A stretch of 64,000 nt of DNA, taken from positions 65,956 through 129,955 of the forward strand of contig JAFWJA010000021.1 in assembly GCA_017511805.1 (NCBI GenBank), in the 5' to 3' direction. Position 1 is the first letter of the stretch; every line of letters begins with the position of its first letter. This DNA is from Bacilli bacterium (GTDB lineage: Bacteria > Bacillota_I > Bacilli_A > RF39 > UBA660). Shown here piece by piece: positions 13,152-41,732 of the stretch. The position numbers and the translations under genes were made by a program. The notes beneath the pieces are model-generated. The model searched no databases, had not been told where the DNA came from, and saw nothing but the letters and a program-made list of their open reading frames with translations.

Positions 13152-14507
13152 TCACACTTCAACATTAACCAAATTACTCTCCCAGTTATTTATTACATTT
13201 AGTATATTCTTATCTTCTATTTCATTATTATATTTCCCTAAAGCCATTGTAACACTATTATCTATTACTTCTATTGTTACTAATGATTTATCAGGTTTAT
13301 CTTTTTCTCTTAAGAAATAAACTTGGCTATTAGAATATAGTATATTGTCATAATAAGTTCTTACACAATTATGCATTTGAAAACTTTCTTCTATTAAATC
13401 ATTTAAATTATGTGGTGGATAAATAATATATTTATCATCTTCATATTTATTAAAATCTAACATATCCCCCACAGCATTTAATTTATTATTAATATCTTTA
13501 TTATTTAATAAAAGATATTTTGTATATACTTCATTATATGCTTTATTAAAATCCTTTGGAAAAAGCACATTATTATCATCTAAATCTAATTTAATTTCTA
13601 AACAAAAAGAATAATAATCTAAATAGGAAAATAATAGTGATTCATCTTTTAAAAATAAATCCCCTAATTTATCAAATACTTTTTTAATAGTTTTTTTATC
13701 CATTTTAGAATCATTTATTAGATCAATGTAATAACCAATAAGTTTTAATAATTTTAAATTATCTGTTTTATATATTTTTAATGCCTTATACATATCACTA
13801 TCAATATCATTTTCCACCATAAATTTATAATATTTCTTTTCTAAACCAAATGTATCTATAAAATTACCTTTAAATTTTATTTCTTCTGGAAATGATAACG
13901 CTAATGAATATAGTTTTAAATTAACTAAATATTCAAATTCTTTATGATATAAAGGATTATATGTAATATCTAATATATTAATTTTTTTAGTAGCAAATAT
14001 ATCTTTTAACATCCATAATTTTGTATATTTATACATACTAGTATTTTTTAATTCTTCTAAATTATCTGTATATAAATAACCACTTGGAATTTCAGTGAAA
14101 AAGTAATAAAAATCCCATTCATCATTATCTTCCACACCTTGAGTTTTATACTTATTATAATACTTATATGAACATGATTTATTACTAATGGTGTCTATTA
14201 TTAAATTATCATAAACTCTAAATCTATTTATTAAAGAAATACTGTTTTTCATATACGAATTAATACAGAAATCACTTTTATAATTTATATTAGATCTATA
14301 AATATTTATATAAACTTCATCACATGAAACTACATCAAAATAGTAATAATTAAAAGAAGCACTTGTCTTTTTAATATCATTATCTTCACCTTTTACCATA
14401 TTTATTTCATCAAAATCTATATGTTTGTTATAATTACTACAATACTTATTATCATTCATATCAATATATTTATTCTTCATTTGACTTTTTATATAATCAA
14501 AAACCAT
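13152..14507 (-). CDS. PcfJ-like domain protein (C-terminal), large N-terminal region of unknown function
   Basis: C-terminal QMHNCVRTYYDNILYSNSQVYFLRE resembles the PcfJ-like core (hNCV..Y...h.....hhFLR). Confidence 0.5.
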   Translation of the reverse strand: MVFDYIKSQMKNKYIDMNDNKYCSNYNKHIDFDEINMVKGEDNDIKKTSASFNYYYFDVVSCDEVYINIYRSNINYKSDFCINSYMKNSISLINRFRVYDNLIIDTISNKSCSYKYYNKYKTQGVEDNDEWDFYYFFTEIPSGYLYTDNLEELKNTSMYKYTKLWMLKDIFATKKINILDITYNPLYHKEFEYLVNLKLYSLALSFPEEIKFKGNFIDTFGLEKKYYKFMVENDIDSDMYKALKIYKTDNLKLLKLIGYYIDLINDSKMDKKTIKKVFDKLGDLFLKDESLLFSYLDYYSFCLEIKLDLDDNNVLFPKDFNKAYNEVYTKYLLLNNKDINNKLNAVGDMLDFNKYEDDKYIIYPPHNLNDLIEESFQMHNCVRTYYDNILYSNSQVYFLREKDKPDKSLVTIEVIDNSVTMALGKYNNEIEDKNILNVINNWESNLVNVEV

Positions 14508-14985
14508 AACACCACCTCTAATTAGAATATAACATAAATAAAAAAAGAAAAATACTGATTCTGAATTAGAAATAGCAAAAAATCTATTTTACCCTTTATT
14601 TATATCAAATAATTTTTTTCATAAATAATTCTCCTTTTCTTCCTGGGTGACCATATATTAACACATAGACTTCTTAATCAACCTGATAACTTTTTAATCA
14701 TAATGATTATTTTTTAGTAGAAAGAAAATAATCCAATAAATTATCTGAGTTTTATTAATTGTTCCAATTAGCTTGATGGTAGTAGTTGAGTGGTTCAAAA
14801 GGTAAAAGAATGAACAGTATTATTTAAAAAAATCATTCGACTATGAAAGCAAGTAATATTACCATAATAAAATTACTATTAGAAAGAGATGAAATAAATG
14901 AATTTAAAGAATTAAAAAAAGGAAATGACATTTATCGACAAATTATGCTATAATCTGAATAGAGATTATACATGGGAGTAGGAAT

Positions 14986-16092
14986 ATGGCAGAGAATAGA
15001 AAATTTTTATCAGAACAGATTATTACATATATAGGTAACAAAAGATCGTTATTAGACTTTATTGGAAAATCAGTAAAACTGGTAAAAAAAGAACTTGGTA
15101 AAGACAAACTAAAGACAGCAGATTTATTTTCAGGATCGGGAATTGTAGCAAGATATTTGAAACAGTATAGTACAGATCTATATGTAAATGATTTGGAGAA
15201 TTATGCTAGTACAATAAATAAGTGTTACTTGACTAATAAATCTAGTATTGATAAGAAAGAATTAAATAGGTGGTATAAATATTTAAAAAGTAATCTTTCA
15301 GATGATAATTTAAAATCTGGTTTTATCACTGAATTATATAGTCCTAAAGATGATAGTGATATAAAAGAGGGTGAAAGAGTTTTCTACAAGTCTAGAAATG
15401 CCAAATACATAGATACTGAGCGTAAATTAATAAAAAGAATTCCAAATAAGTATAAAAACTTGTTTCTTGGTCCACTTTTATATGAAGCTTCTAATAAGAC
15501 TAATACATCTGGTGTCTTCAAAGGTTTTTACAAAAATTCTGATACTAATATAGGTCAATTTGGTGGAAACGGTAAAAATGCATTAAAAAGAATATTGTCT
15601 GATATTGAAGTAAAAAAACCAGTATTGAGTAATTACGATTGCAATGTGAAAGTATATCAAGAGGATACAGTAATACTCGCAAAAAAACTACCTGAAATGG
15701 ATCTTGTTTATTTAGATCCACCTTATAATCAACATCCTTATGGGTCAAATTACTTTATGTTGAACTTAATTAATGATTATAAAAAACCTACAAAAATAAG
15801 TAAGGTATCAGGCATTCCAGAGAATTGGAATAAAAGTGATTTTAATAAAAAATCATCGTCCTTAGCAATGATGAATTCAATTTGTAAAGATTTAAAAACA
15901 AAATATATATTGATTTCATTTAATTCTGAGGGGTTTATTACGTATAACGAAATGGTAAAAATGTTGTCTAAATATGGAACTGTAAGAGTATTTGACAAAA
16001 AATATAATGCTTTTAAAGCTAGTAGAAATCTTAATAAAAGAGATTTATATGTAGATGAGTATTTATTCTTATTAAAGAAGGAGAGTGAATAA
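14986..16092 (+). CDS. D12-class (Dam-like) N6-adenine DNA methyltransferase
   Basis: N-terminal YIGNKRSLLDFI (Dam Y/W-x-G-x-K), motif I DLFSGSG and motif IV DPPYN. Extended -10 TGCTATAAT upstream. Confidence 0.8.
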   Translation: MAENRKFLSEQIITYIGNKRSLLDFIGKSVKLVKKELGKDKLKTADLFSGSGIVARYLKQYSTDLYVNDLENYASTINKCYLTNKSSIDKKELNRWYKYLKSNLSDDNLKSGFITELYSPKDDSDIKEGERVFYKSRNAKYIDTERKLIKRIPNKYKNLFLGPLLYEASNKTNTSGVFKGFYKNSDTNIGQFGGNGKNALKRILSDIEVKKPVLSNYDCNVKVYQEDTVILAKKLPEMDLVYLDPPYNQHPYGSNYFMLNLINDYKKPTKISKVSGIPENWNKSDFNKKSSSLAMMNSICKDLKTKYILISFNSEGFITYNEMVKMLSKYGTVRVFDKKYNAFKASRNLNKRDLYVDEYLFLLKKESE

Positions 16093-16094
16093 TA

Positions 16095-16496
16095 ATGCTG
16101 GGAGATGTATTAAAATCAAGAATCAAAGAATTATCTAAAGCATCAACAAAAAAAGTTGGAGATGATGCTTTTTGGGTAATTCTTAGAAATATTGCAAAAG
16201 ATGAGATAATAGAATTATATCCTAAAAAGGTTGATAGCGATACTATAGTACCTATTTATTTCGAAATATTATCATCAAATGAAACTTATATTCCTAAATA
16301 TTTTAAGGAAAAGTTAGATTCAAATCATCAAGAAAGATATAGAGTAATAAATAGGAATTTGTTTACAAGCAACGCATTTCATCCTGATGGCTTAGCAAAT
16401 CAGGAGGGAATTACTGCATATAAGGATTTTAATGAGAGTAAAAAAGGTGAAAGAATAGTATATCAAGGAGATGTTAATTATGCTAATAAACAATAA
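16095..16496 (+). CDS. Hypothetical 133-aa protein in the MTase/GmrSD-like operon
   Basis: Starts 3 nt after the MTase stop and overlaps the next gene by 26 nt. No recognisable motif. Confidence 0.4.
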   Translation: MLGDVLKSRIKELSKASTKKVGDDAFWVILRNIAKDEIIELYPKKVDSDTIVPIYFEILSSNETYIPKYFKEKLDSNHQERYRVINRNLFTSNAFHPDGLANQEGITAYKDFNESKKGERIVYQGDVNYANKQ

Positions 16497-18057
16497 AGAC
16501 GTGGATAACGATTATATTAATTTATATTCATTAAGTGATAAAAAAATAGGAATTCCAATTTTTCAAAGATTTTATGCATGGAAGGAAAATCATATTAAGA
16601 CACTATTAGAAGATATAACAAATGCAATTAACAGTGATAAGGAATTATATTTGTTAGATTTTATATATTATAAAGAAAATGGTAAGATAATGCTTGCGGA
16701 TGGCCAACAAAGAATAGTTACAATAAATCTATTAATCAAGGCAATAAATGAAAAAATAGAAGTGTTAAATGAATCCGTTGATCAAATAAAACCGTTTGAT
16801 ATAAGTTATGATATTAAAGAAAATGATGATAGTTATAATGAATCATATCACAATTATATAAAATCACCATTTAAGAATGTTTATACTTGCATTTCAAATT
16901 TTATTGATGTTAATGTTGATAATCTACAGAAAATACGAGAAATAATCACAAAAAGAATATTTATCTATTTTAAAAAATGTTCTAATGCAGATGATGCTTT
17001 TTCAATATTTACTCAAATAAATACTGGTGGGAAACCATTAACTAAGGAAGAAATAATAAAAACAGCATTAGATCAATATTCAAAAATATATGATGTTAAA
17101 ATTAATACACTAAATATTAAGGATCTTAGACAGGATGTGGTTAGTTATTATAAAATAGTCGAAGATAATTATTCTATTAACTTTGATCAGATGACTATAA
17201 TGACATTCTTTAAAGAATATGTTACTAAAGACAAAGAAAGTTTTATAAAATTTAAAGAAGCAATAAACTCGTTAGATAAAATTAAGAATAATCCTTTAAG
17301 ATACATTATTAAATATATTAATAGACCAATTTTATTTGATGTAATGAATGTTTTGACTATGAAAGGTATAGATTTGAAGCTTAATAGAAAGTATGTAGAG
17401 AAAGTAATGTTACCACTATGCTTTGCATCTATAACAATGTCTTTTAAATTAAGTAATCCCTCTTTAATTAATCATTTAACAACAGATTTGATTAAAAAAA
17501 TAAAAAAAGATGAAAGTGTAAATGATTTAGAACTTTATATTGCGGAATTTATAGATGATAATTCTGCTGGATTTAAAATGACAAATGAAGAATTCTCTAA
17601 AGCATTAGGAGAACACAATAATGGTTATAGAAATATTAAAAAAGCATTAATGATAATGGATGTAATATATAGAAATACTGCTGGAGAATTAAATGTTGAG
17701 TCTATTAATTTAGAACATATTTATCCACAGAAACCAGATACTGAATGGGCAACAAAAGGGTGGCCAACAAGCCATGATGAACAAATTGAATTAATTGATA
17801 ATATAGGTAATTATTTGTTATTAAATGAAGCAATAAACAAGCGAGTACAGAATAAATATATAACATACAAAGTTCCAGAATATAATAACATTATTCCAAA
17901 AGATCTTATGTTACAAACAGAAATTAATACAGTGAATTTTGATGACTTTGAAACCAAAAAAGAAGAGTATATTTATGAAAGACAAGTAGAAATAGCTAAA
18001 AAAATTAGAACGGGTTTACCATTTGGTCAAAAACTAATTGTAAGTCAAAGAGTATAA
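16471..18057 (+). CDS. DUF262 (ParB/GmrS-like NTPase) + DUF1524 (GmrD/His-Me-like nuclease) fusion; GmrSD/SspE/BrxU-type defence nuclease
   Basis: IGIPIFQRFYAW and LADGQQRIVT are the DUF262 hallmarks (I-P-x-Y-Q-R, DGQQR). C-terminal LEHIYPQKP..GNYLLLNEAINKR is the DUF1524 hallmark. Confidence 0.8.
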   Translation: MLIMLINNKDVDNDYINLYSLSDKKIGIPIFQRFYAWKENHIKTLLEDITNAINSDKELYLLDFIYYKENGKIMLADGQQRIVTINLLIKAINEKIEVLNESVDQIKPFDISYDIKENDDSYNESYHNYIKSPFKNVYTCISNFIDVNVDNLQKIREIITKRIFIYFKKCSNADDAFSIFTQINTGGKPLTKEEIIKTALDQYSKIYDVKINTLNIKDLRQDVVSYYKIVEDNYSINFDQMTIMTFFKEYVTKDKESFIKFKEAINSLDKIKNNPLRYIIKYINRPILFDVMNVLTMKGIDLKLNRKYVEKVMLPLCFASITMSFKLSNPSLINHLTTDLIKKIKKDESVNDLELYIAEFIDDNSAGFKMTNEEFSKALGEHNNGYRNIKKALMIMDVIYRNTAGELNVESINLEHIYPQKPDTEWATKGWPTSHDEQIELIDNIGNYLLLNEAINKRVQNKYITYKVPEYNNIIPKDLMLQTEINTVNFDDFETKKEEYIYERQVEIAKKIRTGLPFGQKLIVSQRV

Positions 18058-18072
18058 TTTTAAAAAAATAAG

Positions 18073-18108
18073 AAGCAAAATTAATTGCTTCCTTTTTCTT
18101 CCTTTTTT
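18073..18108 (+). terminator. Intrinsic terminator
   Basis: Stem gaagcaa-attaa-ttgcttc, then ctttttcttcctttttt. Confidence 0.7.
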
Positions 18109-18160
18109 ATAGTGCCTCTGATTTGCCGTTCGCTACATAAAAACATACACTTTTTAAACA

Positions 18161-18212
18161 TACCGATAACGGTATAAAACATATTGACAAATACTACCGA
18201 TAACGGTATAAT
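18161..18212 (+). promoter_or_regulatory. Consensus sigma-A promoter (TTGACA-N17-TATAAT) with two identical 16-bp operator-like repeats TACCGATAACGGTATA
   Basis: -35 TTGACA at 18184-18189, a 17-nt spacer, and -10 TATAAT at 18207-18212. The repeat occurs at 18161-18176 and 18195-18210; the second copy overlaps the spacer and -10. Each repeat is a 14-bp imperfect dyad (TACCGAT/AACGGTA). Confidence 0.7.
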
Positions 18213-18231
18213 ATAAACAGAGGTGAAAATT

Positions 18232-19158
18232 ATGGAATTTATGACTACAAAAGAAGCTGTGCAAAAATGGAATATTAGTGAAAGAAGAATAAGACAATTA
18301 TTACAAGATGGAAGAATTGAAGGTGCTGTTAAAGTAGGTAATAATTGGAATATTCCTATTAATGCTAATAAACCAGCTGATAAAAGAAGTGTTAAACTAG
18401 ATAATACTGAATTTAAATTTGATTTACCCGATAATTATTTTGATAAAGTTGATAAATTAAATAAAGAATTAAATTCAAAAAGACCTATATCAAAAGAAAC
18501 TTTAAAATCTTTAAAAGAATCTATTAATTTAGAGTGGACTTATAATAGTAACGGTATAGAAGGAAACACATTAACTTTAAGAGAAACACAAATTGTTTTA
18601 GAAGGTATTACTGTTGGAGGTAAATCTTTAAAAGAACATTTAGAGGTTATAAATCATGAACAAGCAATATTATTCTTAGATGATCTTATTAAAGATAAAG
18701 AACCTGTAACAGAATGGAATATAAAAAATATTCATCAATTAGTATTAAAAGAAATAGATGATGATAACGCTGGTAAATATAGAGATGAAAATGTAAAAAT
18801 AAAAGGTGCTACACATATTCCACCAGATTATTTAATAGTTCCAGAATTAATGGAAAAATTAATTATTAATTTTGAAGATTGGAAGAAATATCATCCGATT
18901 ATTAGAGCAGCATTATTACATGGTGAATTAGTTAAGATACATCCATTTGTTGATGGTAATGGTAGAACTTCAAGATTAGTTATGAACTTATCTTTAATGA
19001 ATAGTGGATATCTTCCAGTAATTGTAAAAAAAGAAAAAAGATTAGAATATTATAATGCTTTAGATAAAGCACATACTACTGGAGATTATACAGACTTTGT
19101 TAAATTAGTTAATAAATTAGAAATTGAAATGTTAAATAAATATCTAGAATTGTTGTAG
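18232..19158 (+). CDS. Fic-family protein with N-terminal MerR/excisionase-type HTH
   Basis: Canonical Fic motif HPFVDGNGRTSR. N-terminal inhibitory-helix-like motif SNGIEGN (S-x-x-x-E-G). N-terminal MTTKEAVQKWNISERRIRQLLQDGRIEG is an HTH. Likely start is ATG 18232 with RBS GAGGTG; the ORF track starts at GTG 18223. Confidence 0.8.
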   Translation: MEFMTTKEAVQKWNISERRIRQLLQDGRIEGAVKVGNNWNIPINANKPADKRSVKLDNTEFKFDLPDNYFDKVDKLNKELNSKRPISKETLKSLKESINLEWTYNSNGIEGNTLTLRETQIVLEGITVGGKSLKEHLEVINHEQAILFLDDLIKDKEPVTEWNIKNIHQLVLKEIDDDNAGKYRDENVKIKGATHIPPDYLIVPELMEKLIINFEDWKKYHPIIRAALLHGELVKIHPFVDGNGRTSRLVMNLSLMNSGYLPVIVKKEKRLEYYNALDKAHTTGDYTDFVKLVNKLEIEMLNKYLELL

Positions 19159-19168: not shown

Positions 19169-21511
19169 ATGACAAGTAGAATTTTAAATGATTCCAGTAT
19201 TTGGGATTTACATATCCATACGTGCAATAGTCCAAAATCATCCGGTGAATTTCAGAAAATGGACATAGATAAGTATATCAATACATTATTAGATGTATTT
19301 AAGGATTATCCAGATTTGTCTTTAATTTCTTTTACGGATCATAACATTATTTCTTATGATGTTTACAAAGCTTTCATAGATAGAAAAACTGATATTAATA
19401 TTATACCTGGAATCGAAATAGATGTTGATATTGATGGAATAAAAGATAGCAAGCATATGTTATTTTATTTTAATATTGATTTAGAAAAATTAGAAGATTT
19501 TTCTAAAAAAATAAATGACTATATGAATAATAGAAAAAGTGTTAAAATTGAAAATATTTTGGATTTCTTGATATCAAATAAAATAGAATTTATTATTAGT
19601 CCACATGCTTTTAAACAAGGAAAACGTGGAATTGAATATGATTGGAATGATGAAGATTCCGCTGGTTCAAATGCTCATAAGTTTATGGATCAATTGTTTT
19701 GTTTTTGGGAAGCGTCTGGACATTCTGACATAGCTAATGCTATAGAATTTTTAAGACGAATTGATAAAGAAGATATAATATCTGTTATTTCTTTTTCAGA
19801 TTCATCAGATGAAAAAAAATTAAGAGAATATTTATCAAATCCTCCTCAATACTTTAAATCATTACCAAATTATAAAGGATTGCAATTAGCTGGTACAGAT
19901 TGTAGAAGAATTTTAAAAGAAAAGAAATGCATTAATGAAGATAATACTGGTAATTTTATTGGTAGTGTTTTTATAAATGGTGAAGAAATAAAATTATCAG
20001 ATAGATTAAATACAATAGTTGGTGGTAGAGGTAGTGGGAAATCTTTATTATTGGACAATATGGCACTGTCTATGGATAGTTCAATAAGAGAAAATAAAGT
20101 TCTTAAAGATGATAGAATTGATTTTTTAGATACAATTAATATTCAATTAAAAAACTTAGATGGAACAATTATAGATTTAGATAACAAAAAAATTGATTTT
20201 TTTGATCAATCATATGTTTCGAAAATTTTTACTTCAAATAACATAAGTGAAGAAATAGAAACATATTTCGCTGATGAATTTAAAAACATTGAAAATATAG
20301 ATAAAGAATACGAACTACAACTTATAAAATCAAAATATGAGGAGTACTTAAAAAAGGATATTATTACTAAACCTACAAGTAATATTTCAAATTTTGTTGG
20401 TAAGTATAAAAAAATAGATGAAAAATCCGTTGGATTAAAGATTAGAAAAACTGATATACATACTTTAAATAAAATAGATTACAGTATCGATGAAGCAATA
20501 AAGTATGCCAATAATGGTTGTAAACTTATTCCTAAAGATTTAAAAGGAAATAAAAATATAAACAATGCATTATTAAATTTTATAAAGGTAGTAACAGCAG
20601 AAGCACATGATTATAATAATGAACGAATAAAAGAAAACTTAGAGGATATTATTAAGGAAAAATGTTTGAGTCAAGATGAAGAAAAAAATAAAGAATTAAA
20701 AGTAAGAAATACTGAGGAAGAATTATTTGTTAATCATTTAAAATTTGAATGTGATCCATATGTTGAAAGAACAAATATTGTAAATTCTATTTTGAAATTA
20801 CAGGTAGATTATAAAGAAGAAAAAAATAAATATGATATAAAAGATGGAGTAGATGATAGTAAATTTAAATTTGAAAAAAAGATTATATTTGAAAGCCCTT
20901 TGCAATATTTTAGGAAAATGTGCGAGAAATATATTGGAGTAAAAGCTAAATCATATAGTGATAAAGAGCTATATCATGCATTTATATATGAAATAAATGA
21001 TCTTATTAAAGATTCAAAAACTGTATCTGATTTTATCAGCGACTTAAAAAGTTTGAAAGATTATGAAGTGAAGTATGAAAGTAATATTCTTTATGGCAAA
21101 GATATTGAAAATCTAGAAAATATAGTCAAGATGTCACCAGGAACTCAAACAAATATTTTAATGGAATACATAGTATCAAAACAAACTGAAATTCCACTAT
21201 TGATTGATCAACCAGAAGATAATATAGATAATGAAACTATATATACTAAATTAACAGAATGGTTTGAAAAATTAAAATTAAAAAGACAAGTTATTGTAGT
21301 CACTCATGATGCAAATATTGTTATAAATGCAGATGCTGAAAATGTAATTATAGCTAACAAAAATGAGAAAAATGAATTTACTTATACTTATGGGGCTTTA
21401 GAGTATAATGGAATTCTTGAAAGAATCTCAGTTATTTTAGACGGTGGTGTTGAGGCTGTAGAAAGAAGGTTAAAGAAATATGGAAGAAAAAAAGATAATA
21501 GTAACAATTGA
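19169..21511 (+). CDS. Fusion protein: N-terminal PHP phosphoesterase domain + split SMC/RecN-type ABC ATPase
   Basis: PHP motifs WDLHIHTCNS, FTDHN, PGIEID and ISPHAF. RecF/RecN-like N-terminal ATPase entry FINGEEIKLSDRLNTIVGGRGSGKSLL (Walker A). C-terminal signature-like MSPGTQT, Walker B LLIDQPEDNID and H-loop VVTHDANIV, separated by about 330 aa of K/E-rich probable coiled coil. Starts 10 nt after the Fic stop. Confidence 0.6.
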   Translation: MTSRILNDSSIWDLHIHTCNSPKSSGEFQKMDIDKYINTLLDVFKDYPDLSLISFTDHNIISYDVYKAFIDRKTDINIIPGIEIDVDIDGIKDSKHMLFYFNIDLEKLEDFSKKINDYMNNRKSVKIENILDFLISNKIEFIISPHAFKQGKRGIEYDWNDEDSAGSNAHKFMDQLFCFWEASGHSDIANAIEFLRRIDKEDIISVISFSDSSDEKKLREYLSNPPQYFKSLPNYKGLQLAGTDCRRILKEKKCINEDNTGNFIGSVFINGEEIKLSDRLNTIVGGRGSGKSLLLDNMALSMDSSIRENKVLKDDRIDFLDTINIQLKNLDGTIIDLDNKKIDFFDQSYVSKIFTSNNISEEIETYFADEFKNIENIDKEYELQLIKSKYEEYLKKDIITKPTSNISNFVGKYKKIDEKSVGLKIRKTDIHTLNKIDYSIDEAIKYANNGCKLIPKDLKGNKNINNALLNFIKVVTAEAHDYNNERIKENLEDIIKEKCLSQDEEKNKELKVRNTEEELFVNHLKFECDPYVERTNIVNSILKLQVDYKEEKNKYDIKDGVDDSKFKFEKKIIFESPLQYFRKMCEKYIGVKAKSYSDKELYHAFIYEINDLIKDSKTVSDFISDLKSLKDYEVKYESNILYGKDIENLENIVKMSPGTQTNILMEYIVSKQTEIPLLIDQPEDNIDNETIYTKLTEWFEKLKLKRQVIVVTHDANIVINADAENVIIANKNEKNEFTYTYGALEYNGILERISVILDGGVEAVERRLKKYGRKKDNSNN

Positions 21512-21764
21512 TAAAACAAAAGTTGAATTACAATCAAATAATCCTAACATTAAGAATCTAGTTGAAAAAATATTAGATCAAGATGAAAAGTTTGATTTTA
21601 ATAATATAGAAATAGAATGTTCTGATGATAATTTTGATAAAGATAGTTTTAAAAAAATTATAGTTGATTCAGTGTTTGAATTTAAAAAACAGTTAATTAT
21701 CGAAGAAAAAGATAATAATGATAAAATTGAAAAAATAGAAAAAGAAAAGAAAAATAATGAATAA
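21480..21764 (+). CDS. Small K/E-rich hypothetical protein overlapping the 3' end of the PHP-ATPase gene
   Basis: 94-aa ORF with a 32-nt overlap to the upstream gene and an intrinsic terminator immediately after it. Confidence 0.4.
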   Translation: MEEKKIIVTIDKTKVELQSNNPNIKNLVEKILDQDEKFDFNNIEIECSDDNFDKDSFKKIIVDSVFEFKKQLIIEEKDNNDKIEKIEKEKKNNE

Positions 21765-21806: not shown

Positions 21807-22073
21807 ATGTCTGCACAGTTTTTGCACAACAATTTAGTTAAATTGTTGTGTAAAAAATTATATTTTTTTAAACTGTTTATACTATAAAGCGTTGATTTTA
21901 AAGGGTTTGTATTAATATGATTAACCCAACTTTTTGGGCCCCTGAAGAGAGCAACTCTAGTCTTTTTATCCACAAGATTTATTATAATATTTTTATAGAT
22001 ATAATAATTTTACTTTTTTGATAGCATAAATTATATAATAAGTGGTATAATGAAAAATAAAGGCAGTGTATTT

Positions 22074-24927: not shown

Positions 24928-25047
24928 GTAATAATTAGTAAAGTAATTTTAAAAAACTTGAGTAAAATAAGAATATAGTAGTTTTAGTATTGTTTAAATA
25001 TTGAAATTATGTTATGATTAATTAAGATAGTAGAGGTGTTTGTAGTA

Positions 25048-28000
25048 ATGGTAAAAAGGAAGAATAAGCTATCGATTCTTTTTATTTTTACAGTTATGAT
25101 TTCCGTATTATTTATAGGGAAAGTTTTTGCGTCTTCAAACATCATTAAACTTACAAACATCCAAATAAAAGATCAAACTTCGGGAGTAGATGCGAGTATA
25201 GATAGTTATAATGCGAATACTGTTAATACTAGTAATGATTACCATGCGGTTAATAATTATGTAGAGTATATTTTAACAATATTAAATACTGATTCTAAAC
25301 CATATTCAATTAAGTCTATTAGTGATACTAATACTAATCCGAATATTAAATATGATTATTATGATTATAAAGATAAGATTTTAAAACCTAATTCTACAGT
25401 ACAAATATTAATTAGAGAAACTTATAATACAGAGAATGCTGATTTAACTAATAGAAGTTCTTCAAATAGTGTTAAGTTCTTATTTAATCTGGTTGATGAA
25501 GATGGAGTAGAGATATATTATGATGGTGATAATCCTACTACTGGTGATCAGATTATGAAATATGTTATTATATTTGGAATATCAATAGTAGCGTTAATTG
25601 CTTTAATATTTATAATCTGGAAATTTAAGAAGGGTAAAAAGTTAATGGTTCTTCTACTATTTGGATTATTAATGATACCTGGATTTGTTAGAGCAGAAGA
25701 TGTAGAAGCTACTATAACATTTAATAATAATATCGATTTATTAGATAAAGTAAAAGTAACATTTAATTATAACGGAGTAACTAGAGAGTCTATTATACAA
25801 TACGATAGCAGTGTAACAGAGCCTAGTGTTCCTAATAAGAATGGATATATATTCTTAGGTTGGTTCAATAATGGAAACTTATTTGATTTTAGTACAAGAT
25901 TAACTAGTGATATAACACTTGAAGCTGATTACTTAAAAGAAAGTTATACAATAACATATGACTTAGATGGCGGTAATGCTTCTAATCCTGGTGTATATAA
26001 AGTAACTGAATTACCGATAGCACTTAATAATCCAGTTAAAGATGGATATACATTTATAGGATGGACTGGTAGTAATGGTACAACACCTCAAAAAGACTTA
26101 ACTATTACTAACAAGAGTGAAAATTTAAATTATAAAGCAAATTATACTATAAACACTTATACAATAGCTTATGAAGGATTAACTGAAGCAGAAATGACTA
26201 CTTTAAATAATCCAGATACTTATAATATAGAAGATACAATAACATTAAATAATCCAGCGAATAGATTAGATAATGATGGAGATCTAGCATATAGATTTAT
26301 AGGTTGGAAAAATGATACAAATGATGTTTCAAAAACAATTACTATAACTAATAATACTGGTGTTAAATCATATGAAGCTGTATGGTTACCAGTTGCACCT
26401 GATACTTACACAATTACTTATGAATTACATGATGGAACTATCGATGGTACTAATCCGTTAACTTTTAACAAGTTAACTCCAAGTTTTACCTTACTTAATC
26501 CTACAAAGAGAGGTTACTCATTTGATGGATGGATAGGGAGTAATGGTGATGTACCACAAACTAGTGTTACTATTAATCAAGGAACTAAACAAGATTTAGA
26601 GTTTGAAGCTATATTCACTAAAATAGATTATCCGATAGCATATGATCTAGATGGTGGATCAGTAGCAGTAGCTAATCCTGTTACTTATACAGTAACAGAT
26701 ACAGTTACATTAAATAATCCTACTAAGAGAGGATATAATTTCTTAGGATGGTCTGGTACAGATATAGAGGGAATGAGTACTAGTGTTACTATTCCAGTTA
26801 ATTCTATAGGAGAAAGATCATATAAAGCTAATTATGAAATAATAGAATATACAATTACTTATGATTTAGATGGAGGAGCAGTTACTGGTAATCCAACTAC
26901 TTATAAAGTTACAGATACAATTAATTTATTAGCACCTACTAAATTAGGACATATATTTACTGGTTGGACAGGTAGTAACGGACAAACACCTCAAACTAAT
27001 GTTACTATTACTAATTCAATAGGTAATTTAAGTTATACTGCTAATTATGAAGGTGGAGCATATTATGTTCATTTTGATAAGAATGATTCTTTAGCAACAG
27101 GTACTATGGAAGATGAACAAATGCAAGTAGATCTTTCTAAAGCATTAACATCAAATAAGTTCTATAAGAAAGATTATGTATTTGATGGATGGACTACAAA
27201 TCAAGATGGTACAGGTACTGTATATGCTGATGGTGAATCAGTTACTAATTTAGTTATGAGTGGTACTATTACACTATATGCTAAATGGAGACCTGTTAAG
27301 AAAGCTATATTTGATACAGGATCTAAAGTAAATATTAGAATGAAGACTTTATCTGGACAAAGTGGTGCCGCAACAGGAACTAATAATAGTATTATTAAAA
27401 AGGTTAAGTATGTGGATCCAGTACCACAAGATAAACAAATAACTGATAATATTATATCTAGTGCTGCTAGTCAGTATAAGGTATATATGTGGTATGATTC
27501 AGATGAAAAGATTATATATTATGGTAAAGAAGATGACGCAGATGAGATTTATTTAGGTAAAGATGGAGCATACATGTTCAATTACCTATATGAATGTACA
27601 GAAATAGATACTAACTTTAGAACAGATGATACACAAAACTTTACTCAAATGTTCTGGAGAGACGTTAATCTAGAAGTATTAGATGTTAGTCACTTTAAGA
27701 CAAATGAAGCGAAGAGTTTCTCTTCTATGTTTGGTGAGTGTGCTAAGATTCCATCATTTGATTTAAGTGGATGGGATGTTAGTGGTGCTAAAACATTTAC
27801 ATTTATGTTTAACCAATGTGCATCTATAACAGAGTTAGATTTAACTAATTGGGTTACAACAAGTGCAGAAACTATGAAGAATATGTTTAGTAGTACTACT
27901 AACTTAAGTACTTTAAAAATACCTAATTTTGTAACATCAAATGTTACAGATATGCAAAAGATGTTTGATAACATGCCTAGCATACAATCTTTAGATCTTA

Positions 28001-28407
28001 GTCATTTTGATACATCTAAAGTTACTGCTATGAACCAAATGTTTGAGAACATGACAAGTTTAACAAGTTTAAATATTTCAAGTTTTAATACAGCTAAGGT
28101 TAAGAACATGGAAAAAATGTTTAAAGGAACAAATCAATTACAAACACTTGATATTAGTAGCTTTAATACATCAATAGTTACTAATATGAATAATATGTTT
28201 AGTGAAATGAGTGCATTAACAACAATTTATGTTAGCTCATCATTCACAACTTCTTCAGTTACGTCAACTCCAGTAATGTTTGCATCAGATACAAACTTAG
28301 TTGGTGGAGCTGGAACTCATTGGAGTTCATCAAATACTAAGAAGGATTATGCAAGAATAGATAGACCTGATCTTAGTCAACCAGGTTATTTCACAGAAAA
28401 ACAATAA
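25048..28407 (+). CDS. Large cell-surface protein: signal peptide, N-terminal domain paralogous to the 22074 gene, internal NPTTGD sorting signal + TM + KFKKGKK, internal signal-peptide-like segment (..GFVRA/ED), about 7 InlB B-repeat domains, C-terminal DUF285/'26-residue surface-protein repeat' array
   Basis: RBS AGAGGTG lies 9 nt upstream of ATG 25048. Repeats GYIFLGWFNNG, GYTFIGWTGSNGTTPQ, GYSFDGWIGSNG, GYNFLGWSG, GHIFTGWTGSNG and FDGWTTNQDG...LYAKW. C-terminal repeats FDLSGWDVSGAKTFTFMFNQCASITELDLTNW, SNVTDMQKMF and TSKVTAMNQMF are of the DUF285 type. Confidence 0.7.
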   Translation: MVKRKNKLSILFIFTVMISVLFIGKVFASSNIIKLTNIQIKDQTSGVDASIDSYNANTVNTSNDYHAVNNYVEYILTILNTDSKPYSIKSISDTNTNPNIKYDYYDYKDKILKPNSTVQILIRETYNTENADLTNRSSSNSVKFLFNLVDEDGVEIYYDGDNPTTGDQIMKYVIIFGISIVALIALIFIIWKFKKGKKLMVLLLFGLLMIPGFVRAEDVEATITFNNNIDLLDKVKVTFNYNGVTRESIIQYDSSVTEPSVPNKNGYIFLGWFNNGNLFDFSTRLTSDITLEADYLKESYTITYDLDGGNASNPGVYKVTELPIALNNPVKDGYTFIGWTGSNGTTPQKDLTITNKSENLNYKANYTINTYTIAYEGLTEAEMTTLNNPDTYNIEDTITLNNPANRLDNDGDLAYRFIGWKNDTNDVSKTITITNNTGVKSYEAVWLPVAPDTYTITYELHDGTIDGTNPLTFNKLTPSFTLLNPTKRGYSFDGWIGSNGDVPQTSVTINQGTKQDLEFEAIFTKIDYPIAYDLDGGSVAVANPVTYTVTDTVTLNNPTKRGYNFLGWSGTDIEGMSTSVTIPVNSIGERSYKANYEIIEYTITYDLDGGAVTGNPTTYKVTDTINLLAPTKLGHIFTGWTGSNGQTPQTNVTITNSIGNLSYTANYEGGAYYVHFDKNDSLATGTMEDEQMQVDLSKALTSNKFYKKDYVFDGWTTNQDGTGTVYADGESVTNLVMSGTITLYAKWRPVKKAIFDTGSKVNIRMKTLSGQSGAATGTNNSIIKKVKYVDPVPQDKQITDNIISSAASQYKVYMWYDSDEKIIYYGKEDDADEIYLGKDGAYMFNYLYECTEIDTNFRTDDTQNFTQMFWRDVNLEVLDVSHFKTNEAKSFSSMFGECAKIPSFDLSGWDVSGAKTFTFMFNQCASITELDLTNWVTTSAETMKNMFSSTTNLSTLKIPNFVTSNVTDMQKMFDNMPSIQSLDLSHFDTSKVTAMNQMFENMTSLTSLNISSFNTAKVKNMEKMFKGTNQLQTLDISSFNTSIVTNMNNMFSEMSALTTIYVSSSFTTSSVTSTPVMFASDTNLVGGAGTHWSSSNTKKDYARIDRPDLSQPGYFTEKQ

Positions 28408-28428: not shown

Positions 28429-31400
28429 ATGGATACAGTAAAACATTATATTAAATATTTTGTTTTAGCTATCGCTTTATTACTACTAGTTAATATTGGT
28501 AGTGCTAAAGCTGCTACTGACGTTATATTGAAATTTACAGATGCCGGTATTGAAGAAACTGTATCTGGAAGTGGATATATAATAAACGGTACATCTCTTG
28601 AAATAATAAATTCTGGAACATATATTATTAAAGGAAGTTGTACTGAAGGTAATATTTCCGTTAAAAAGGGAACAACAGGTGTAACAATAGTTTTAGAAGA
28701 CTTACAATTATCGTCTTCTAAAACTGCACCTATTACAGTTAAAAAAGATGGAGCACAGGTTGATTTCTGGTTAAATGGACATTCTGTTATCGTAGATAAT
28801 GAGGATCCATCTCAAGAATTCTCTCCTGATCCAGAAGTAGCAGATCTATATGAAGGAGCTGCTATAAAAGTAAAATCTGGTTCTAGTGTCTCATTTGCAG
28901 GTGCTGGAATTATAGATATTGAAAGTAGACATAATAACGCTATTAAAGGTGCATCAGAAGCATCAATTACATTTAATACAGGTATCTTTAATATAAGTGC
29001 AGGTAATAGTGGTGTATCTTGTGATGGTACTATTACTCTTAACAATGGACACTTAACTATAGATGCTGCTAATGAAGGTATTAAATTATCTCCTAATGAA
29101 GATGATACTACATCACTAGCTAAATTCGTTAATAATGGTGGAAAAGTTGTTATTTCTGCAGGACAAGATGGTATACAAGCACAAGGTGATATAGAAATAA
29201 ATGGATGGTCTGAAATAGAAATAGATTCTAAAGAGGATGCTATCCAAACTAGATCAAACTTTACTATGACTAATGGTAGAGTAGTAATTCATACATTTGA
29301 AGGATATAATACACCTAACTTTGATCCAGATATTATGAGTGCTAAAGGTATTAAAGCAGCTAAAACAGATGAACAAACAGAAGATGCCACTAATACAATT
29401 AATATCACAGGTGGAACTATATATATAGATTCAAGTGATGATGCTATTCACTCAGATGCATATGTTAATATTACTAGAGGTACTGTTACAGCATTATCTG
29501 GTGATGATGGTATACATGCTGATACTAAATTAGTAATAGGTAGTCAAGGTGGTCTTAGTAGAGACCCAGAAATAACAATAAGAGAAAGTGTTGAAGGTAT
29601 TGAAGCTGGAAACATTTATGTATATTCTGGTAAAACTAGTGTATATGCAATAGATGATGGTATGAACGCTGCTGGTGGAGCTTCATCAGGTGGTGGAAAA
29701 GAACATGGTGAACACTTTAATCCAGACACAGGACAAATGGAAGAAAATTATGCTATATATGTATATGGTGGAAATATCTATGTTAACTGTGAAGGTGATG
29801 GATTAGATGCCAATGGTAGTTTATATTTATATGGTGGTACACAAATAATTTATCACCAAGATGCTCAAGGTAATAACTCAGCTCTAGATAGAGACCATAA
29901 ATTAGTTATTGATGGAGCTACAGTATTTGCAGCAGGTGGTGTTGCAGATAATGGACGTATTGATTCAACAGGTAGTTCACAAAAAATAATAATTGATGAT
30001 ACAACAGATTATTCTGCTAATAGTAAGGTAGTTGTTAGTGATAATGGAACTCCAGTATTTAATGATCAAATACCAAAGAGATCAGTTTATACATTCTATT
30101 CGAGTCCAAGTCTTGATAATGGTTCTATTAGTACAACAAGTACAATAGCAGATTTAAATAATAATCCATGGAATCATAATTTTGATGATGGTGTTATAAC
30201 TACACCTGCTACTCCTAGTACACCAGGAGTTATAACTTATACATGTCAAGATGATGGTTATACAGAATCTAAAACATATTTCTATAAAGGTGAAGTAACA
30301 TTTACTTTCGTTAATAAAACAAATGGACAAGCAAGTATAACAGTAGGTTCTACTACAAGTAGTACAAACTTTGTAACTAACGAACCAGATGAATTTATAT
30401 ATATGACTACTACTGAAGACGTAGAGTTAATAGCTACTAAAGATGGATTAGATTATCAAACTATGTTCCCAGAATCAACAAGTGATCCAAATACTGTTAG
30501 ATTCCATGCAAATCCATCTACTACAAAGACATTCTATGTAGTATTAGATGGTGATGTTAATATGGATGGAGTAGCAGATATAGATGACTCTACTATTATA
30601 GCTAGATCATTATTATCTAGTAGTGATCCTAGATATGTAGAATTATCATTAATACAAAAAGTTTTAGCGGATATTAATGATGATGGATTAATAAATTCTC
30701 ATGATGGTTTAGCAATTATAAAAGATTTAACAGGAACAGATAAATATGATGAAAGTTACTTTGGTATTACATCTATAGATCCAGTTATATTAGATGGAGA
30801 ACATGATGGAGAAGCAACAGTTTCATTCTATACTAAGAAAGCTATATTTATAGACGCAATGGATGGTAGATATTCACCATCAAAAGAATATCCAAGTACA
30901 AATGGATATCTTGAATTAAGTGATATTCAAGGTTCATATGATCAAGTACAATATTCATTAATAGATGTTAATAGTGGATTTGCTGGCGCAGTTGATACTA
31001 ACGGATTAAGCATTCCAAAAGACACTGTACTAGTTACATTAAAATATAAAGTTGATAAAGATACTCCAACTGGTACATATCCAGTTAAATTAAGAATTGA
31101 TTCAGTAACTGCTCATGATTCAAAGATACCAACATCATTTGAAATAAAAGCAGATGTAATTGTTAAAGGACAAAATACTCCAACAAGTGCATTCTTTGTT
31201 GCAGATGATGGAGTAGCAGGTATTGATGTATATCATACACAAGATTATTCTCATTCAGATGAAGTAGATGTTACTTCTACTGCTATTAGGGATTCTGTTA
31301 CTGGAGAATTAATTCCACCTGGTGGAGAAGGACAATTAAATTTCTTAGTTAAACCAAAAATGGGTTATATAGTAACAAATGTTGAAGTAACTCCATCAGC

Positions 31401-34400
31401 ACACTTTAAACAAGTAAAAGGACCTGCTGATACAGATCAACCAAATACTTTTAGAGTTACTAAAGTAACTGGTGATATAGAAGTAGTAGTTACTACTAAA
31501 AAAGCTAGTGAATTTACTGCAACATTTGATATTGATGAAAATAAAATAGAAGCAATTGATGTATATTATACACAAGATTATACTACTCCAGATGAAACAG
31601 GAGTAACAGAGACTCTAGTAAGAAATGGAGATACTGGTGCAATAGATATATCTGGTGATGGACAAGTTAACTTCAAAGTTATACCAAAACCAGGATATAA
31701 AGTAGATTCTGTTAAAGTATCTGGTACTTATAAGAATATTAAAGATCAAGGCAATAATATTTATCGTGTTACTAAGGTTAGTGGAGATATTATAATTAAG
31801 GTTAAGGGAGCTGAAAAAGAAACAATAGTTCCTGAAGTAACTGGATATTCTCCAAGTCATGTTTATACTGGTTCTAAGATAAAACCAGCTATAACAGTTA
31901 ATATCGCAGGTACAGAAACTACATTAGTTAAGAATACAGATTATACTATTGAATATGGTACTAATAAAGATGTAGGTACTGGTACAATTACTATTAATCC
32001 AGTAATGACAAGTGCATATTTATTTAATCCAACTACTGTTACATTTGATATTACTCCATATACATTAACAAGTTCTAATGTTGAAGTACCAAGTGCAATT
32101 GTTTATACAGGAGATCCATTATCTCCAGAAGTAACAGTTACTCATGGAAGTACTACTTTAGTAGAAGGTACAGACTATGAAGTATCATATGCTAACCAAG
32201 ATGGCATGGTAGGAGAATCTGTAAATGTTATTGTTACAGGTAAAGGAAACTTTACTGGTGTAGTAAATGATAAAGAAGTACCTATTACTGCTAAAGCTAC
32301 TCAAACTATAGTATTTGAACATGATGAAATAACTAAGATATATGGTAGTGATTTCACACAAGTAGCTAACTTAGTTGTAGGTGATGGTACTATTACATAT
32401 TCATCATCTAACCCAGCAGCTGCTACTGTTGATCCAGTAACTGGTGCTGTAACATTAGTAGCAACAGGACAAACTTATATCCGTGCTACTGCTAGTGAAA
32501 CAGAAAACTATGCTGAAACAACTGTAAGATATAAATTAATTGTTAAGAAAGCAGATATAGCTATAACAGGTGTTACTGTATCTGATAAAGATTATGATGG
32601 TACTAAGACTGCTACTGTTACTGGTGTAACATTTAGTGGATTAGTTAAATCAGAAGAGTTAGTAATGGGTACTGATTATACAGTAACAGGATTATTTAGC
32701 GATGCTGAAATAGGTACTGATAAAGAAGTAACTGTTACAGTAGATTTATCTGTAGCAACTTTATCTAGATATGCATTAGCTAATAATACCGCAATAGGTA
32801 CTGCAAGTATTAATCCAATTTCTATAACAGAAAATGATATAACATTAAGTGATAGTACTTATGAATATGATGGTACTGAAAAGACTCCAACAGTTTCAGT
32901 AGTAACAGGTGGACAAACATTAGTAGAAAATGTTGATTATAAAGTAAGTTATATAGATAATGTTAATGAAGGAGAAGCATACGCTGTTATTGTTGGTATT
33001 GGTAATTATAGTACTAATACTCCAATAACTAAAGTATTTACTATTACTCCTAAAACTATAACTCCAACTATTGAAGCTATAGAAGATCAAGAGTTCACTG
33101 GTTCTGAAGTTCAACCAGCAATAGTAGTTAAAGATGGAACTACTACATTAGTAGAAGGTACTGATTATACAGTTTCTTATGCTAATAACATTGTAATAGG
33201 TACAGCAGATGTAACAATTAGTCCAGTTGATGGAGGTAATTATACATTTGATGATACTGATCCTAGTGCTAGTACAACATTTGATATAGTTCCATATACT
33301 ATTAAAGAAGAAGATATAACACTAGAATATACATTTGTTAAATATGATGGAAGTGCTAAAACACCATCTGTTACAGTAACATTAAATGGTAATGTATTAA
33401 CTGAAAATACTGATTATACAGTAGCATACAGTAATAACAATGTAGTTACTGAAACTGCTAAAGTAACAGTAACAGGACTTGCTCCTAATTATACTGGTAC
33501 TCCAGAAGTATTCTTTGAAATATCTGATAAAGACTTATTAACAATAAGTGGAATTAATAATCAATCAGTAACATATACTGGTGAAGAAGTAGAATTAGAA
33601 GGAACATTAACTGTTTCAGAAAATACAGATAATATAACTGTAGATGATTTAACAGTTAAATATTATGATAGTTCAGATAATGAAATAGAAAGACCAACTA
33701 ATGTAGGTGCTTACTATGTAGTATATAGTTATGATGGAGCTAATTATAAAGGTGAAACTAGAGTAGACTTTGAAATAACTAAAAAGGAATCTAGTATACC
33801 TAGTGAAGTAAGTTCTAACTTACAAGGTGTAGTTCATGATAGTTTAAATACAATAGTATTTACTACATCAGGACTTGCTTGGGAAGATGGAACTACTAGT
33901 ATAGCTCCAGAATCTAATACATATCCAGCTATATATACTGAAAACAATGATACAATTAATTACACTACAATAAATGTTAATATACCAGTTTATGGTAAAC
34001 AAGTAATTGATATTAATACAAGTGTTGATGGTGCAGGAGGAACAATTACAGACTCTATGAATGATGTAGTTGAAGGGACTCCTAAAACTATTACTTTAGA
34101 TCCTAATGAAGGATATGAAGTAGATGCAGTATATATCAATAATGAAGAAGTACCTGTTTCTAATAATCAATTAGAAATAACAGCGGGTTCATCTGATATG
34201 AATATTGTTGTTAAATTTAAAACTACTGAATATAGTATGAATATATCTGGTGATAATTCATATGTAGATCCATATGGTATTATTAATGTAGAACATAATT
34301 CTGCAATGGAATTAACTATATCTGCTAAACCAGGATATAGGTTATCATCAGTAAAAGTTAATAATGAAGAAAAAATAACAGATTTGACTAGTGATAAATT

Positions 34401-39963: not shown

Positions 39964-39977
39964 TATTTCTTTTTTTG
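39947..39977 (+). terminator. Intrinsic terminator overlapping the amidase stop
   Basis: Stem gaaatac-aaaata-gtatttc plus a T-run. Confidence 0.7.
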
Positions 39978-40016
39978 ATATTTATGATATAATACTTCGT
40001 GTTTGAAGGGGATATA

Positions 40017-41658: not shown

Positions 41659-41732
41659 AGGGGTGTAGTTAAATGGTATAATAGGAGTCTCCAAAACTTT
41701 TGTTGGGAGTTCGATTCTCTCCACCCCTGCCA
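41659..41732 (+). tRNA. trnW: tRNA-Trp (anticodon CCA)
   Basis: Cloverleaf folded by hand: acceptor AGGGGTG/CACCCCT, D-stem GTTA/TAAT, anticodon stem GGAGT/ACTTT with loop CTCCAAA (U33, CCA, A37), T-arm GGGAG-TTCGATT-CTCTC, discriminator G, encoded CCA. Confidence 0.85.

Follow-up and report, generated by a model that had tools for sequence, protein, structure and literature searches.

The subject of this analysis is a promoter at positions 18161-18212 of a 64-kb stretch of DNA from a Bacilli bacterium of the RF39 lineage (assembly GCA_017511805.1, contig JAFWJA010000021.1), together with the gene that it serves. The whole stretch of 64,000 nucleotides (nt) is called the window, and all positions are coordinates of this window unless another contig is named. 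The promoter carries two copies of a short inverted repeat (dyad), and the first gene behind it encodes HTH-Fic, a protein in which a helix-turn-helix (HTH) domain precedes a Fic enzyme domain. A preliminary description of the stretch had proposed that the two dyads are the autoregulatory operator of the HTH-Fic operon. The region is built from the following features:

18072..18101, forward strand: intrinsic terminator, stem 18072-18091 followed by a T-run (terminator scan)
18161..18174, no strand: putative distal operator O_D, TACCG-ATAA-CGGTA (sequence and conserved spacing in homologues)
18184..18189, forward strand: -35 hexamer TTGACA, near-invariant across 66 unique homologous promoters
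18190-18206: promoter spacer, exactly 17 nt
18195..18208, no strand: putative proximal operator O_P, TACCG-ATAA-CGGTA (sequence and half-site conservation)
18207..18212, forward strand: -10 hexamer TATAAT, consensus match
18220..18225, forward strand: Shine-Dalgarno sequence GAGGTG, 6 nt ahead of the ATG and kept in homologous loci
18232..19158, forward strand: HTH-Fic gene, 308 residues (Pfam Fic, 1.7e-23)

The promoter matches the sigma-A consensus at 12 of 12 positions with a 17-bp spacer, so that the exact TTGACA-N17-TATAAT of the preliminary description is confirmed to the base at 18184-18212. Its other claims about layout also stand: the 16-mer TACCGATAACGGTATA occurs at 18161-18176 and again at 18195-18210, 34 bp from start to start, with one dyad in the spacer and -10 hexamer and the other just 5' of the -35 hexamer. 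The stretch identical between the copies is in fact 17 nt long (TACCGATAACGGTATAA), and each copy consists of perfect 5-bp arms around a 4-bp spacer. O_P fills the 3' two thirds of the 17-bp promoter spacer and covers the first two bases of the -10 hexamer, while O_D ends 9 bp 5' of the -35 hexamer, its centre being ∼51 bp 5' of the predicted transcription start. An inverted repeat lies, then, over the core promoter of the regulator's own gene, which is the position expected of an autoregulatory operator.

Transcription probably starts near 18219 with a leader of ∼13 nt, since the constant distance of 19 nt between the end of the -10 hexamer and the ATG (in 88 loci), with the Shine-Dalgarno sequence between them, fits such a start. 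The gene is taken to begin at the ATG at 18232, not at the GTG at 18223 of the open reading frame (ORF) list, because the alignment of homologues begins at M-E-F-M-T-T. The terminator at 18072..18101 ends the upstream unit of genes for a methyltransferase, a 133-residue protein and a GmrSD-type enzyme, and insulates the Fic promoter from it.

In 100 shuffles of the window the exact 16-mer has an expectation of 0.00, compared with the two copies found, and five matches to TACCG-N4-CGGTA with up to one mismatch are found where 0.11 are expected. The hexamers are less telling. The perfect 12/12 promoter, which had been called rare, is indeed unique in the window, but its rarity is weaker than claimed: 0.10 occurrences are expected and 9 of the 100 shuffles contain at least one. 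With one mismatch allowed there is no enrichment (4 found, 2.8 expected), and in DNA of 25% GC the perfect promoter alone is only mildly unusual. The significance of the arrangement comes from the dyads and their conservation, not from the hexamers by themselves.

The protein has four recognisable parts:

Residues 1-45, nt 18232-18366, forward strand: winged HTH (Pfam, AlphaFold2, Foldseek)
Residues 46-92: variable linker
Residues 106-111, nt 18547-18564, forward strand: class II inhibitory motif S106-N-G-I-E110-G (SNGIEG), invariant in homologues
Residues 237-248, nt 18940-18975, forward strand: Fic motif H237-PFVDGNGRTS-R248, HPFVDGNGRTSR, invariant in homologues

The Fic motif fits the catalytic HxFx(D/E)GNGRxxR of Fic AMP-transferases, and the inhibitory motif, which lies N-terminal of the core, fits (S/T)xxxE(G/N) and aligns with the inhibitory helix region of FICD. 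The closest solved Fic domain is that of human FICD (1.7e-39). Both motifs of the Fic domain, the catalytic one and the auto-inhibitory one, are intact. The N-terminus matches Pfam HTH_17 at 3.8e-4 in the full-length protein and 5e-5 on its own, or 21.1-23.9 bits for a gathering cut-off of 27; MerR and MerR_1 are not among the Pfam matches of the N-terminus, MerR proteins sharing the winged-helix fold only. Structural work rests on a model of the N-terminal domain, as the full-length model is too poor for a fold search. The AlphaFold2 model of the N-terminal 64 residues (mean predicted local distance difference test, pLDDT, of 81) has a beta-alpha-alpha-beta-beta order, and Foldseek places it with the lambda and Tn916 Xis proteins on DNA, the MerR-type NmlR, BldC and RdfS, at probabilities of up to 0.99 but with E-values no better than 0.07. 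The model thereby points to an Xis/MerR-like winged helix. The HTH that had been read into the first gene product is borne out by the sub-threshold HTH_17 match and the confident fold model together. Its recognition helix reads S-E-R-R-I-R (SERRIRQLL) in the window; the segment W-N-I-S-E-R-R-I-R is invariant across 137 unique homologues, the HTH equals the catalytic core in conservation, and the linker (residues 46-92) varies.

Relatives of HTH-Fic occur at 201 places in a scan with one genome per species. The best 80 of these are 77-98% identical and come nearly all from metagenome-assembled genomes (MAGs) of uncultured gut 'Bacilli' of humans, ruminants, rabbits and chickens. Among the 79 loci with sufficient upstream DNA, 68 have the consensus promoter and the proximal dyad directly ahead of the Fic gene, and in 9 of the remaining 11 the promoter and dyad lie further upstream, before one or two inserted ORFs or a longer leader. 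The TTGACA/TATAAT consensus and the 17-bp spacer are likewise present in the aligned homologous promoters (66 unique). Position by position, the ten half-site bases are identical in 63-66 of these 66 promoters; the four central bases hardly rise above background, and all Fic loci fetched together show 39 different N4 spacers. Fixed half-sites around a free spacer are the signature of a protein-binding dyad rather than of a duplicated sequence, and the conserved feature is the dyad TACCG-N4-CGGTA, not the whole 16-mer.

The second dyad is kept as well. Of 168 loci, 139 have a distal site with up to two mismatches at a constant distance of 33-34 bp upstream, compared with a random expectation of 0.7%; the spacing is 33 bp in 85 loci and 34 bp in 52, and the right arm of the distal site is frequently CGGAA. 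The 'two identical 16-mers' of the preliminary description are real in the window, but are a local feature and not what is conserved: the two 14-mers are identical in just 21 of 104 unique dual-site promoters, which argues for selection on the half-sites and not on a duplicated block, and in 77 of the 104 the N4 differs between the copies.

Some loci have a gene of 110-113 residues, with no family match, between the operator-promoter and the Fic gene. It is seen in six of the related loci (L003, L004, L007, L010, L011 and L033) and in ∼14 metagenome loci; its stop abuts the Fic start, and the promoter then lies 345 nt 5' of the Fic ATG. This insert may be a modulator or an antitoxin-like partner. 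SoFic, a Fic anti-phage protein, has a small downstream antitoxin, AS1 (PMC12249575).

The dyad is linked to the Fic gene and to little else. In the 600 kb around the 80 homologues, 96 of 98 exact dyads lie in Fic-operon promoters, including those of loci with inserted ORFs. What lies beside the Fic gene differs greatly between loci (serine recombinases, tyrosine integrases, SecA, LysM amidases and others), and the flanking genes of the homologous loci fall into hundreds of unrelated clusters. The preliminary description had advised a search for other genomic copies: the window and the 600 kb of related loci were scanned, and they give no evidence of further targets. Beyond the Fic promoters the related loci contain two extra exact dyads, at L009:7907 and L036:279. 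The latter lies within a Fic coding sequence. The former (TACCGAAAACGGTA, L009:7907-7920) is the sole extra exact intergenic dyad of the related loci; it lies 3.9 kb 3' of the Fic start, and no ORF of 60 or more residues follows it. The window itself has a third exact TACCG-N4-CGGTA at 63086-63099 (TACCGGAAACGGTA, spacer GAAA), which sits in the coding sequence of a LysM N-acetylmuramoyl-L-alanine amidase and encodes G-Y-T-G-N-G-I. None of the amidase genes of related loci has this dyad, and given its coding position and this absence it is discarded as an operator and is probably a by-product of codons.

The same pairing emerges from DNA alone. A metagenome scan with the pattern TTGACA-N5-TACCG-N4-CGGTATAAT, which uses no protein information, returns at least 120 loci. 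Among the matches listed, HTH-Fic lies downstream on the same strand in 97, three further ones are truncated AT-rich contigs with the same two-dyad promoter, and the other 20 have a single dyad and are unrelated contigs of 34-58% GC. A scan of viral contigs gives zero exact matches to the promoter-dyad pattern, and Rfam has no match in six of the odd higher-GC contigs. On contig L133 the second gene of the operon, ∼300 nt downstream of the promoter-dyad, encodes a stand-alone HTH_17 protein of 78 residues. This HTH is 45% identical to the Fic N-terminus, is found at an E-value of 4.5e-6 with a hidden Markov model (HMM) made from Fic N-termini only, and matches Pfam HTH_17 at 1.1e-9 (38.8 bits, above the gathering cut-off of 27). 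Five other contigs (L084, L115, L124, L129 and L144) share a promoter family of the form TATACCG-N4-CGGTATA with variable N4, and their second or third gene is a weak HTH_17 match with the helix S-V-R-R-V-R. P0122, a relative of the L133 protein (helix S-T-R-R-I-R), has TACCG-CATG-CGGAC upstream, and its other relative P0123 (helix T-Y-V-R-I-N) has no such upstream site.

The six contigs with small HTH_17 operons (L133:1198-1760, L115:26-1260, L124, L144, L129 and L084) are environmental and of 45-53% GC, and they look like early regions of phages or plasmids. In the HTH_17 proteins of the last five, which are 132-157 residues long, the HTH is C-terminal. The HTH type is widespread altogether, with 3,082 cluster representatives at E-values of up to 0.001; these include stand-alone proteins of 60-100 residues, tandem arrays and other fusions. 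P0124, P0125, P0126, P0138 and P0162, for instance, have three to six tandem HTH copies (325 residues with six) or an HTH in the middle of a protein of 577-640 residues.

Where the HTH diverges, so does the site. A tblastn search of annotated phage and plasmid records yields three full-length HTH-Fic homologues: one in Streptococcus phage Javan422 (41% identity, between the terminase and portal genes), one in Mycoplasmopsis cynos (43% identity, upstream of the type I restriction-modification gene hsdM) and one on a gut phage contig (31% identity). The promoter of each has a 17-bp spacer and an element abutting the -10 hexamer, with more copies upstream. The promoters read TTGATA-TTG-TTCCGATAAGATGG-TATAAT in Javan422, TTAATA-TTG-TTCCGATAAAATGT-TATAAT in M. 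cynos and TTGATA-TTT-TGCCGATAATGTGT-TATAAT on the gut phage contig. The half-site in these homologues is TTCCGATAA or TGCCGATAA, of the form T-N-CCGATAA, and the recognition helices are SDRRVRILC (Javan422 and M. cynos) and SERSVRNYC (gut phage contig), compared with SERRIRQLL in the window. The half-site changes where the helix changes, which suggests covariation of protein and site. The upstream copy on the gut phage contig is a perfect dyad, TGCCG-CTAT-CGGCA, and those in Javan422 and M. cynos are several direct copies in ∼20-bp steps.

These direct repeats, TAT(T/C)(A/G)TTCC(G/A), span L204:2340-2470 in Javan422, where there are six copies, and L205:2400-2470 in M. cynos, and they are reminiscent of head-to-tail binding by Xis or BldC rather than of a simple dyad. 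Stand-alone HTH relatives on Enterococcus plasmids also have a repeat within the promoter spacer beside the -10 hexamer; one, with the helix SERRIQ, has TTCCG, and a second, with the helix PPRWINYY, has an unrelated TTCTT-N7-AAGAA dyad. A spacer repeat beside the -10 hexamer is thus a general theme, but the 'code' between helix and site is not one-to-one.

From these comparisons it is inferred, with a probability of roughly 80%, that HTH-Fic represses its own promoter through the two operators, that is, by negative autoregulation through its own winged HTH. The reading draws on four independent comparative lines, which support the operator of the preliminary description: (i) more than 150 loci have conserved half-sites, a free spacer between them and a fixed geometry, (ii) the dyad accompanies the gene from one unrelated context to another and hardly occurs apart from it, (iii) the same dyad-promoter stands before stand-alone HTH homologues in unrelated DNA, and (iv) distant homologues have an element at the same promoter position in which the half-site has changed along with the recognition helix.

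In the proposed mechanism, the two HTH domains of a dimer held together by Fic would bind each TACCG-N4-CGGTA dyad. Occupancy of the proximal dyad, across the spacer and the first bases of the -10 hexamer, would block RNA polymerase, and the distal dyad 33-34 bp upstream, often the weaker one with its CGGAA arm, would add cooperative binding. With the repressor encoded by the first gene, this would amount to a negative feedback loop, which would keep a potentially toxic enzyme and the genes co-transcribed with it at a low level independent of copy number; the maximal-strength promoter would be poised for a burst once the repressor leaves the DNA. The DNA-bound dimer could also be the enzymatically quiet state, so that release would couple derepression to AMPylase activity. 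This last coupling of DNA binding to enzyme state is speculative and is drawn by analogy with FICD and CbFic2.

Several points weigh against autorepression by HTH-Fic. All of its support is comparative. The HTH_17 score of HTH-Fic is under Pfam's gathering cut-off, and the full-length AlphaFold2 model is unreliable (pLDDT 48). The half-site centres are only 9 bp apart, and the 33-34 bp between the dyads make up a non-integral number of helical turns. Half-sites and helix are both invariant inside the family, so that covariation comes from three diverged lineages only, and it is not one-to-one: an Enterococcus plasmid HTH with the helix S-E-R-R-I-Q stands behind a TTCCG element. Finally, 13 of the 20 higher-GC contigs listed in the metagenome scan have no HTH_17 gene by HMM and tblastn searches, these contigs being short; the promoter-dyad may either be used by other proteins too or arise by chance near consensus promoters. 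The 13 are L082/L103, L083, L087/L125, L097, L099/L118/L154, L101/L136, L173, L181 and L196, and the genes behind their promoter-dyads are mutually unrelated (an S1-domain protein, a TlyC/CBS-type protein and small ORFs).

The same 13 contigs, and the lone intergenic dyad of L009, are what a separate host-encoded regulator could explain, for example a global repressor of the lineage that uses the dyads while the Fic HTH binds elsewhere or nothing at all. Such a regulator is unlikely. The dyad goes where the gene goes, with 96 of the 98 sites in 600 kb at Fic operon promoters, it recurs with stand-alone HTH homologues in unrelated higher-GC DNA, and the element changes together with the HTH at 31-43% identity in Streptococcus, Mycoplasmopsis and the gut phage; a host factor would need to be conserved, with matching covariation, across all these lineages.

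A MerR-type activator or dual regulator, remodelling the promoter upon a signal sensed by Fic, has a lower standing again and is distinctly improbable. The N-terminal fold belongs to the Xis/MerR-like winged-helix group, and MerR proteins bind a dyad between the -35 and -10 hexamers. MerR-type activation, however, depends on an over-long spacer of 19-20 bp. In the window, as in the aligned promoters of homologues, the spacer has the optimal length of 17 bp, which sets HTH-Fic outside the MerR-family activators, and with both hexamers at consensus in nearly all homologues there is nothing that needs activating; the MerR dimerisation coiled coil is absent, too, and the site overlaps the -10 hexamer.

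It is marginally less probable still that the dyads are architectural or recombination sites, with the Xis-like domain acting as a recombination directionality factor and the overlap with the promoter secondary. The best structural matches are DNA-bound excisionases, the gene is often beside a large serine recombinase or a tyrosine integrase, and the direct copies in ∼20-bp steps of Javan422 and M. cynos recall Xis/BldC filaments. Against this, in more than 150 loci the sites keep a register to the -35 hexamer, the -10 hexamer and the start codon that does not shift by a single base, many of these loci have no recombinase nearby, the repeat of the stand-alone relatives on Enterococcus plasmids is likewise inside the promoter spacer, and the window shows no matching second att-like site. 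An RNA hairpin, attenuator or terminator is rejected on other grounds: folding of 18150-18240 gives nothing out of the ordinary (z -1.75), both dyads precede the predicted transcription start, and their arms are invariant rather than co-varying. That an AT-rich genome simply yields a functionless consensus promoter and a short repeat is already refuted by the conservation data, for the 12/12 promoter does arise in 9 of 100 window shuffles but the repeat is absent from all of them and the full arrangement is kept in more than 150 loci of different species.

The idea that a toxic enzyme can be repressed through a DNA-binding domain of its own is established, and CccR of Yersinia pseudotuberculosis is the only characterised Fic example: it is both a Fic toxin and an autorepressor, and its dimer binds palindromes at the -35 and -10 hexamers of its own promoter (PMC9755527). 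Both proteins are class II Fic enzymes fused to a DNA-binding domain. The domain of CccR, though, is a C-terminal SoFic-type winged HTH, whereas that of HTH-Fic is N-terminal (residues 1-45), of the Xis/MerR-like HTH_17 type and set on a FICD-like core; CccR has a single 10-N26-10 inverted repeat as its operator, in contrast with two 5-N4-5 dyads 33-34 bp apart; and CccR is an effector of a type VI secretion system, while the HTH-Fic gene is in defence islands of gut Bacilli. HTH-Fic may therefore work like CccR, but its sequence does not place it within the CccR/SoFic architecture.

In CbFic2 of Coxiella burnetii, DNA binding through the HTH leads to dimerisation and to a switch from AMPylase to deAMPylase; for FICD and CbFic2 alike, the dimer or DNA-bound form is the deAMPylase and the monomer the AMPylase (PMC10628234). 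HTH-Fic resembles both in being class II with an inhibitory glutamate, and its Fic domain is most similar to that of FICD. CbFic2 differs in its C-terminal DeoR-type winged HTH, for which no sequence specificity is known, and in not being known to autoregulate, and FICD is without a DNA-binding domain. With the single-gene anti-phage system SoFic (PMC12249575) HTH-Fic shares a Fic AMP-transferase in defence islands. The PADLOC match to SoFic (6.2e-34) covers the core only, profile positions 52-263 of 361, and SoFic chains in the Protein Data Bank match weakly, at about 4e-5. SoFic consists of an N-terminal DUF4172-type region, the Fic core and a C-terminal winged HTH, and an N-terminal HTH_17 is not part of it; HTH-Fic has no C-terminal domain, ending ∼50 residues after the Fic motif, and is not counted as a SoFic.

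Type II toxin-antitoxin systems such as Phd/Doc and AbiEi also hold a toxic or potentially toxic enzyme low, through a DNA-binding module that attaches to inverted repeats in their own promoter. HTH-Fic is unlike them in having no separate antitoxin gene, as the repressor domain, the inhibitory helix and the enzyme form one polypeptide. Many defence systems are headed by the DNA-binding repressors BrxR, CapW and RptR, with operators in their own promoters (PMC9122601, PMC9122588, PMC12255303). They are wHTH-WYL-WCX (winged HTH, WYL and WCX) or other non-enzymatic repressors, whereas HTH-Fic has a Fic domain that is, by its motifs, catalytically intact. Pfam finds no WYL domain in HTH-Fic, which does not belong with the BrxR/CapW regulators; the resemblance is positional only, in that it too heads varied defence genes. 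On HTH-Fic proteins as regulators of defence islands, literature searches turn up CccR, CbFic2, SoFic and the WYL/RptR regulators and nothing further. The novelty lies in the architecture, in which a FICD-like core has an N-terminal HTH of the Xis/MerR-like kind and a consensus promoter contains two putative 5-N4-5 operators; more than 150 uncultured gut Bacilli also share the putative operator base for base. With its 14-bp site, its domain of 64 residues and a promoter whose strength is known, the system is fully specified and easily tested.

In the window, the Fic unit continues with two more genes and a terminator:

19169..21511, forward strand: Ppl-like gene of 780 residues, PHP plus ATPase (PADLOC Ppl, 1.8e-20)
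21480..21764, forward strand: small acidic ORF of 94 residues, overlapping the end of the Ppl-like gene; no family match
21819..21856, forward strand: intrinsic terminator closing the Fic unit, 17-pair stem and T-run (terminator scan)

The Ppl-like gene starts 10 nt past the Fic stop with no terminator between, and the 94-residue ORF is probably the last gene of the unit. Such tight coupling is common, as seen in a survey of 151 loci with sufficient downstream sequence. A same-strand ORF begins within 60 nt of the Fic stop in 77 of them, within 20 nt in 68 of these, and 76 of the 77 pairs of Fic and cargo are without a terminator; in 23 other loci a terminator-like hairpin stands directly behind Fic. 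The 77 cargo genes belong to 33 unrelated families. PADLOC matches 8 of 20 cargo representatives:

GajA: 7.6e-177, 11 loci
OLD/AriA-like ATPase-Toprim: two families
DolA: 5.4e-62
ThsA-like SIR2: 5.2e-24
NERD-type helicase: 1.5e-178
QatA: 2.1e-111
PDC-M43A: 2.6e-18

Ten cargo representatives were scanned with Pfam; seven have no match, and the other three give Mrr_cat, HD_4 with AAA_28, and sub-threshold TPR repeats. At least two MAGs hold two modules with differing cargo (CAKORH010000047/78 and CAKPMB010000004/8).

Most likely, HTH-Fic also shuts off the changing anti-phage genes directly behind it in about half of the more than 150 related gut-bacterial genomes that have the arrangement. A further step is tentative, and we would sooner bet against it than on it: HTH-Fic may be more than a self-limited toxin, namely a conserved regulator-enzyme heading a swap-in defence cassette, which is released by an infection cue that Fic senses. 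The DNA-bound dimer would then silence both the cassette and the AMPylase, and the cue would fire promoter and enzyme together. Instead of being a regulatory head, the Fic gene may simply flank a recombination hot spot. If HTH-Fic does head such cassettes, (i) in genomes with several copies, the defence cassettes would form a small regulon under one shared operator, (ii) the module would be a marker for new anti-phage genes in a poorly studied lineage of gut bacteria with small genomes, and (iii) it would offer a bacterial model for the control of FICD-type AMPylases by DNA binding and oligomeric state. About half of the tested cargo families have no known defence or Pfam match, and are a possible source of new defence genes.

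The surroundings of the Fic unit hold further defence and mobility genes. The upstream defence unit (14986-18057) begins with a D12-class N6-adenine DNA methyltransferase (14986-16092), followed by the 133-residue ORF of no known family (16095-16496) and the GmrSD-type (DUF262/DUF1524) restriction enzyme (16471-18057). A near-consensus promoter at 14925-14954 serves this unit alone, and its terminator is the stem at 18072-18091. Just upstream of these defence genes, on the reverse strand, lies a gene for a PcfJ-like protein (13152-14507, Pfam 1.4e-19). The PcfJ family is known from conjugative plasmids, and this neighbour hints at a mobile element to which the region belongs or once belonged.

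A LysM amidase gene, paired with a small gene on the reverse strand, follows Fic at a distance of 1-3 kb in many loci. The same pair is present in the window at 38737-41596, with the reverse-strand gene at 41156-41596 and a tRNA-Trp gene at 41659-41732. The variable slot from Fic to the amidase is here ∼19.6 kb long and includes very large surface-protein-like ORFs at 25036-28407 and 28429-34884. The window has two paralogous LysM amidase genes, one within 38737-41596 and the other at 62991-64000.

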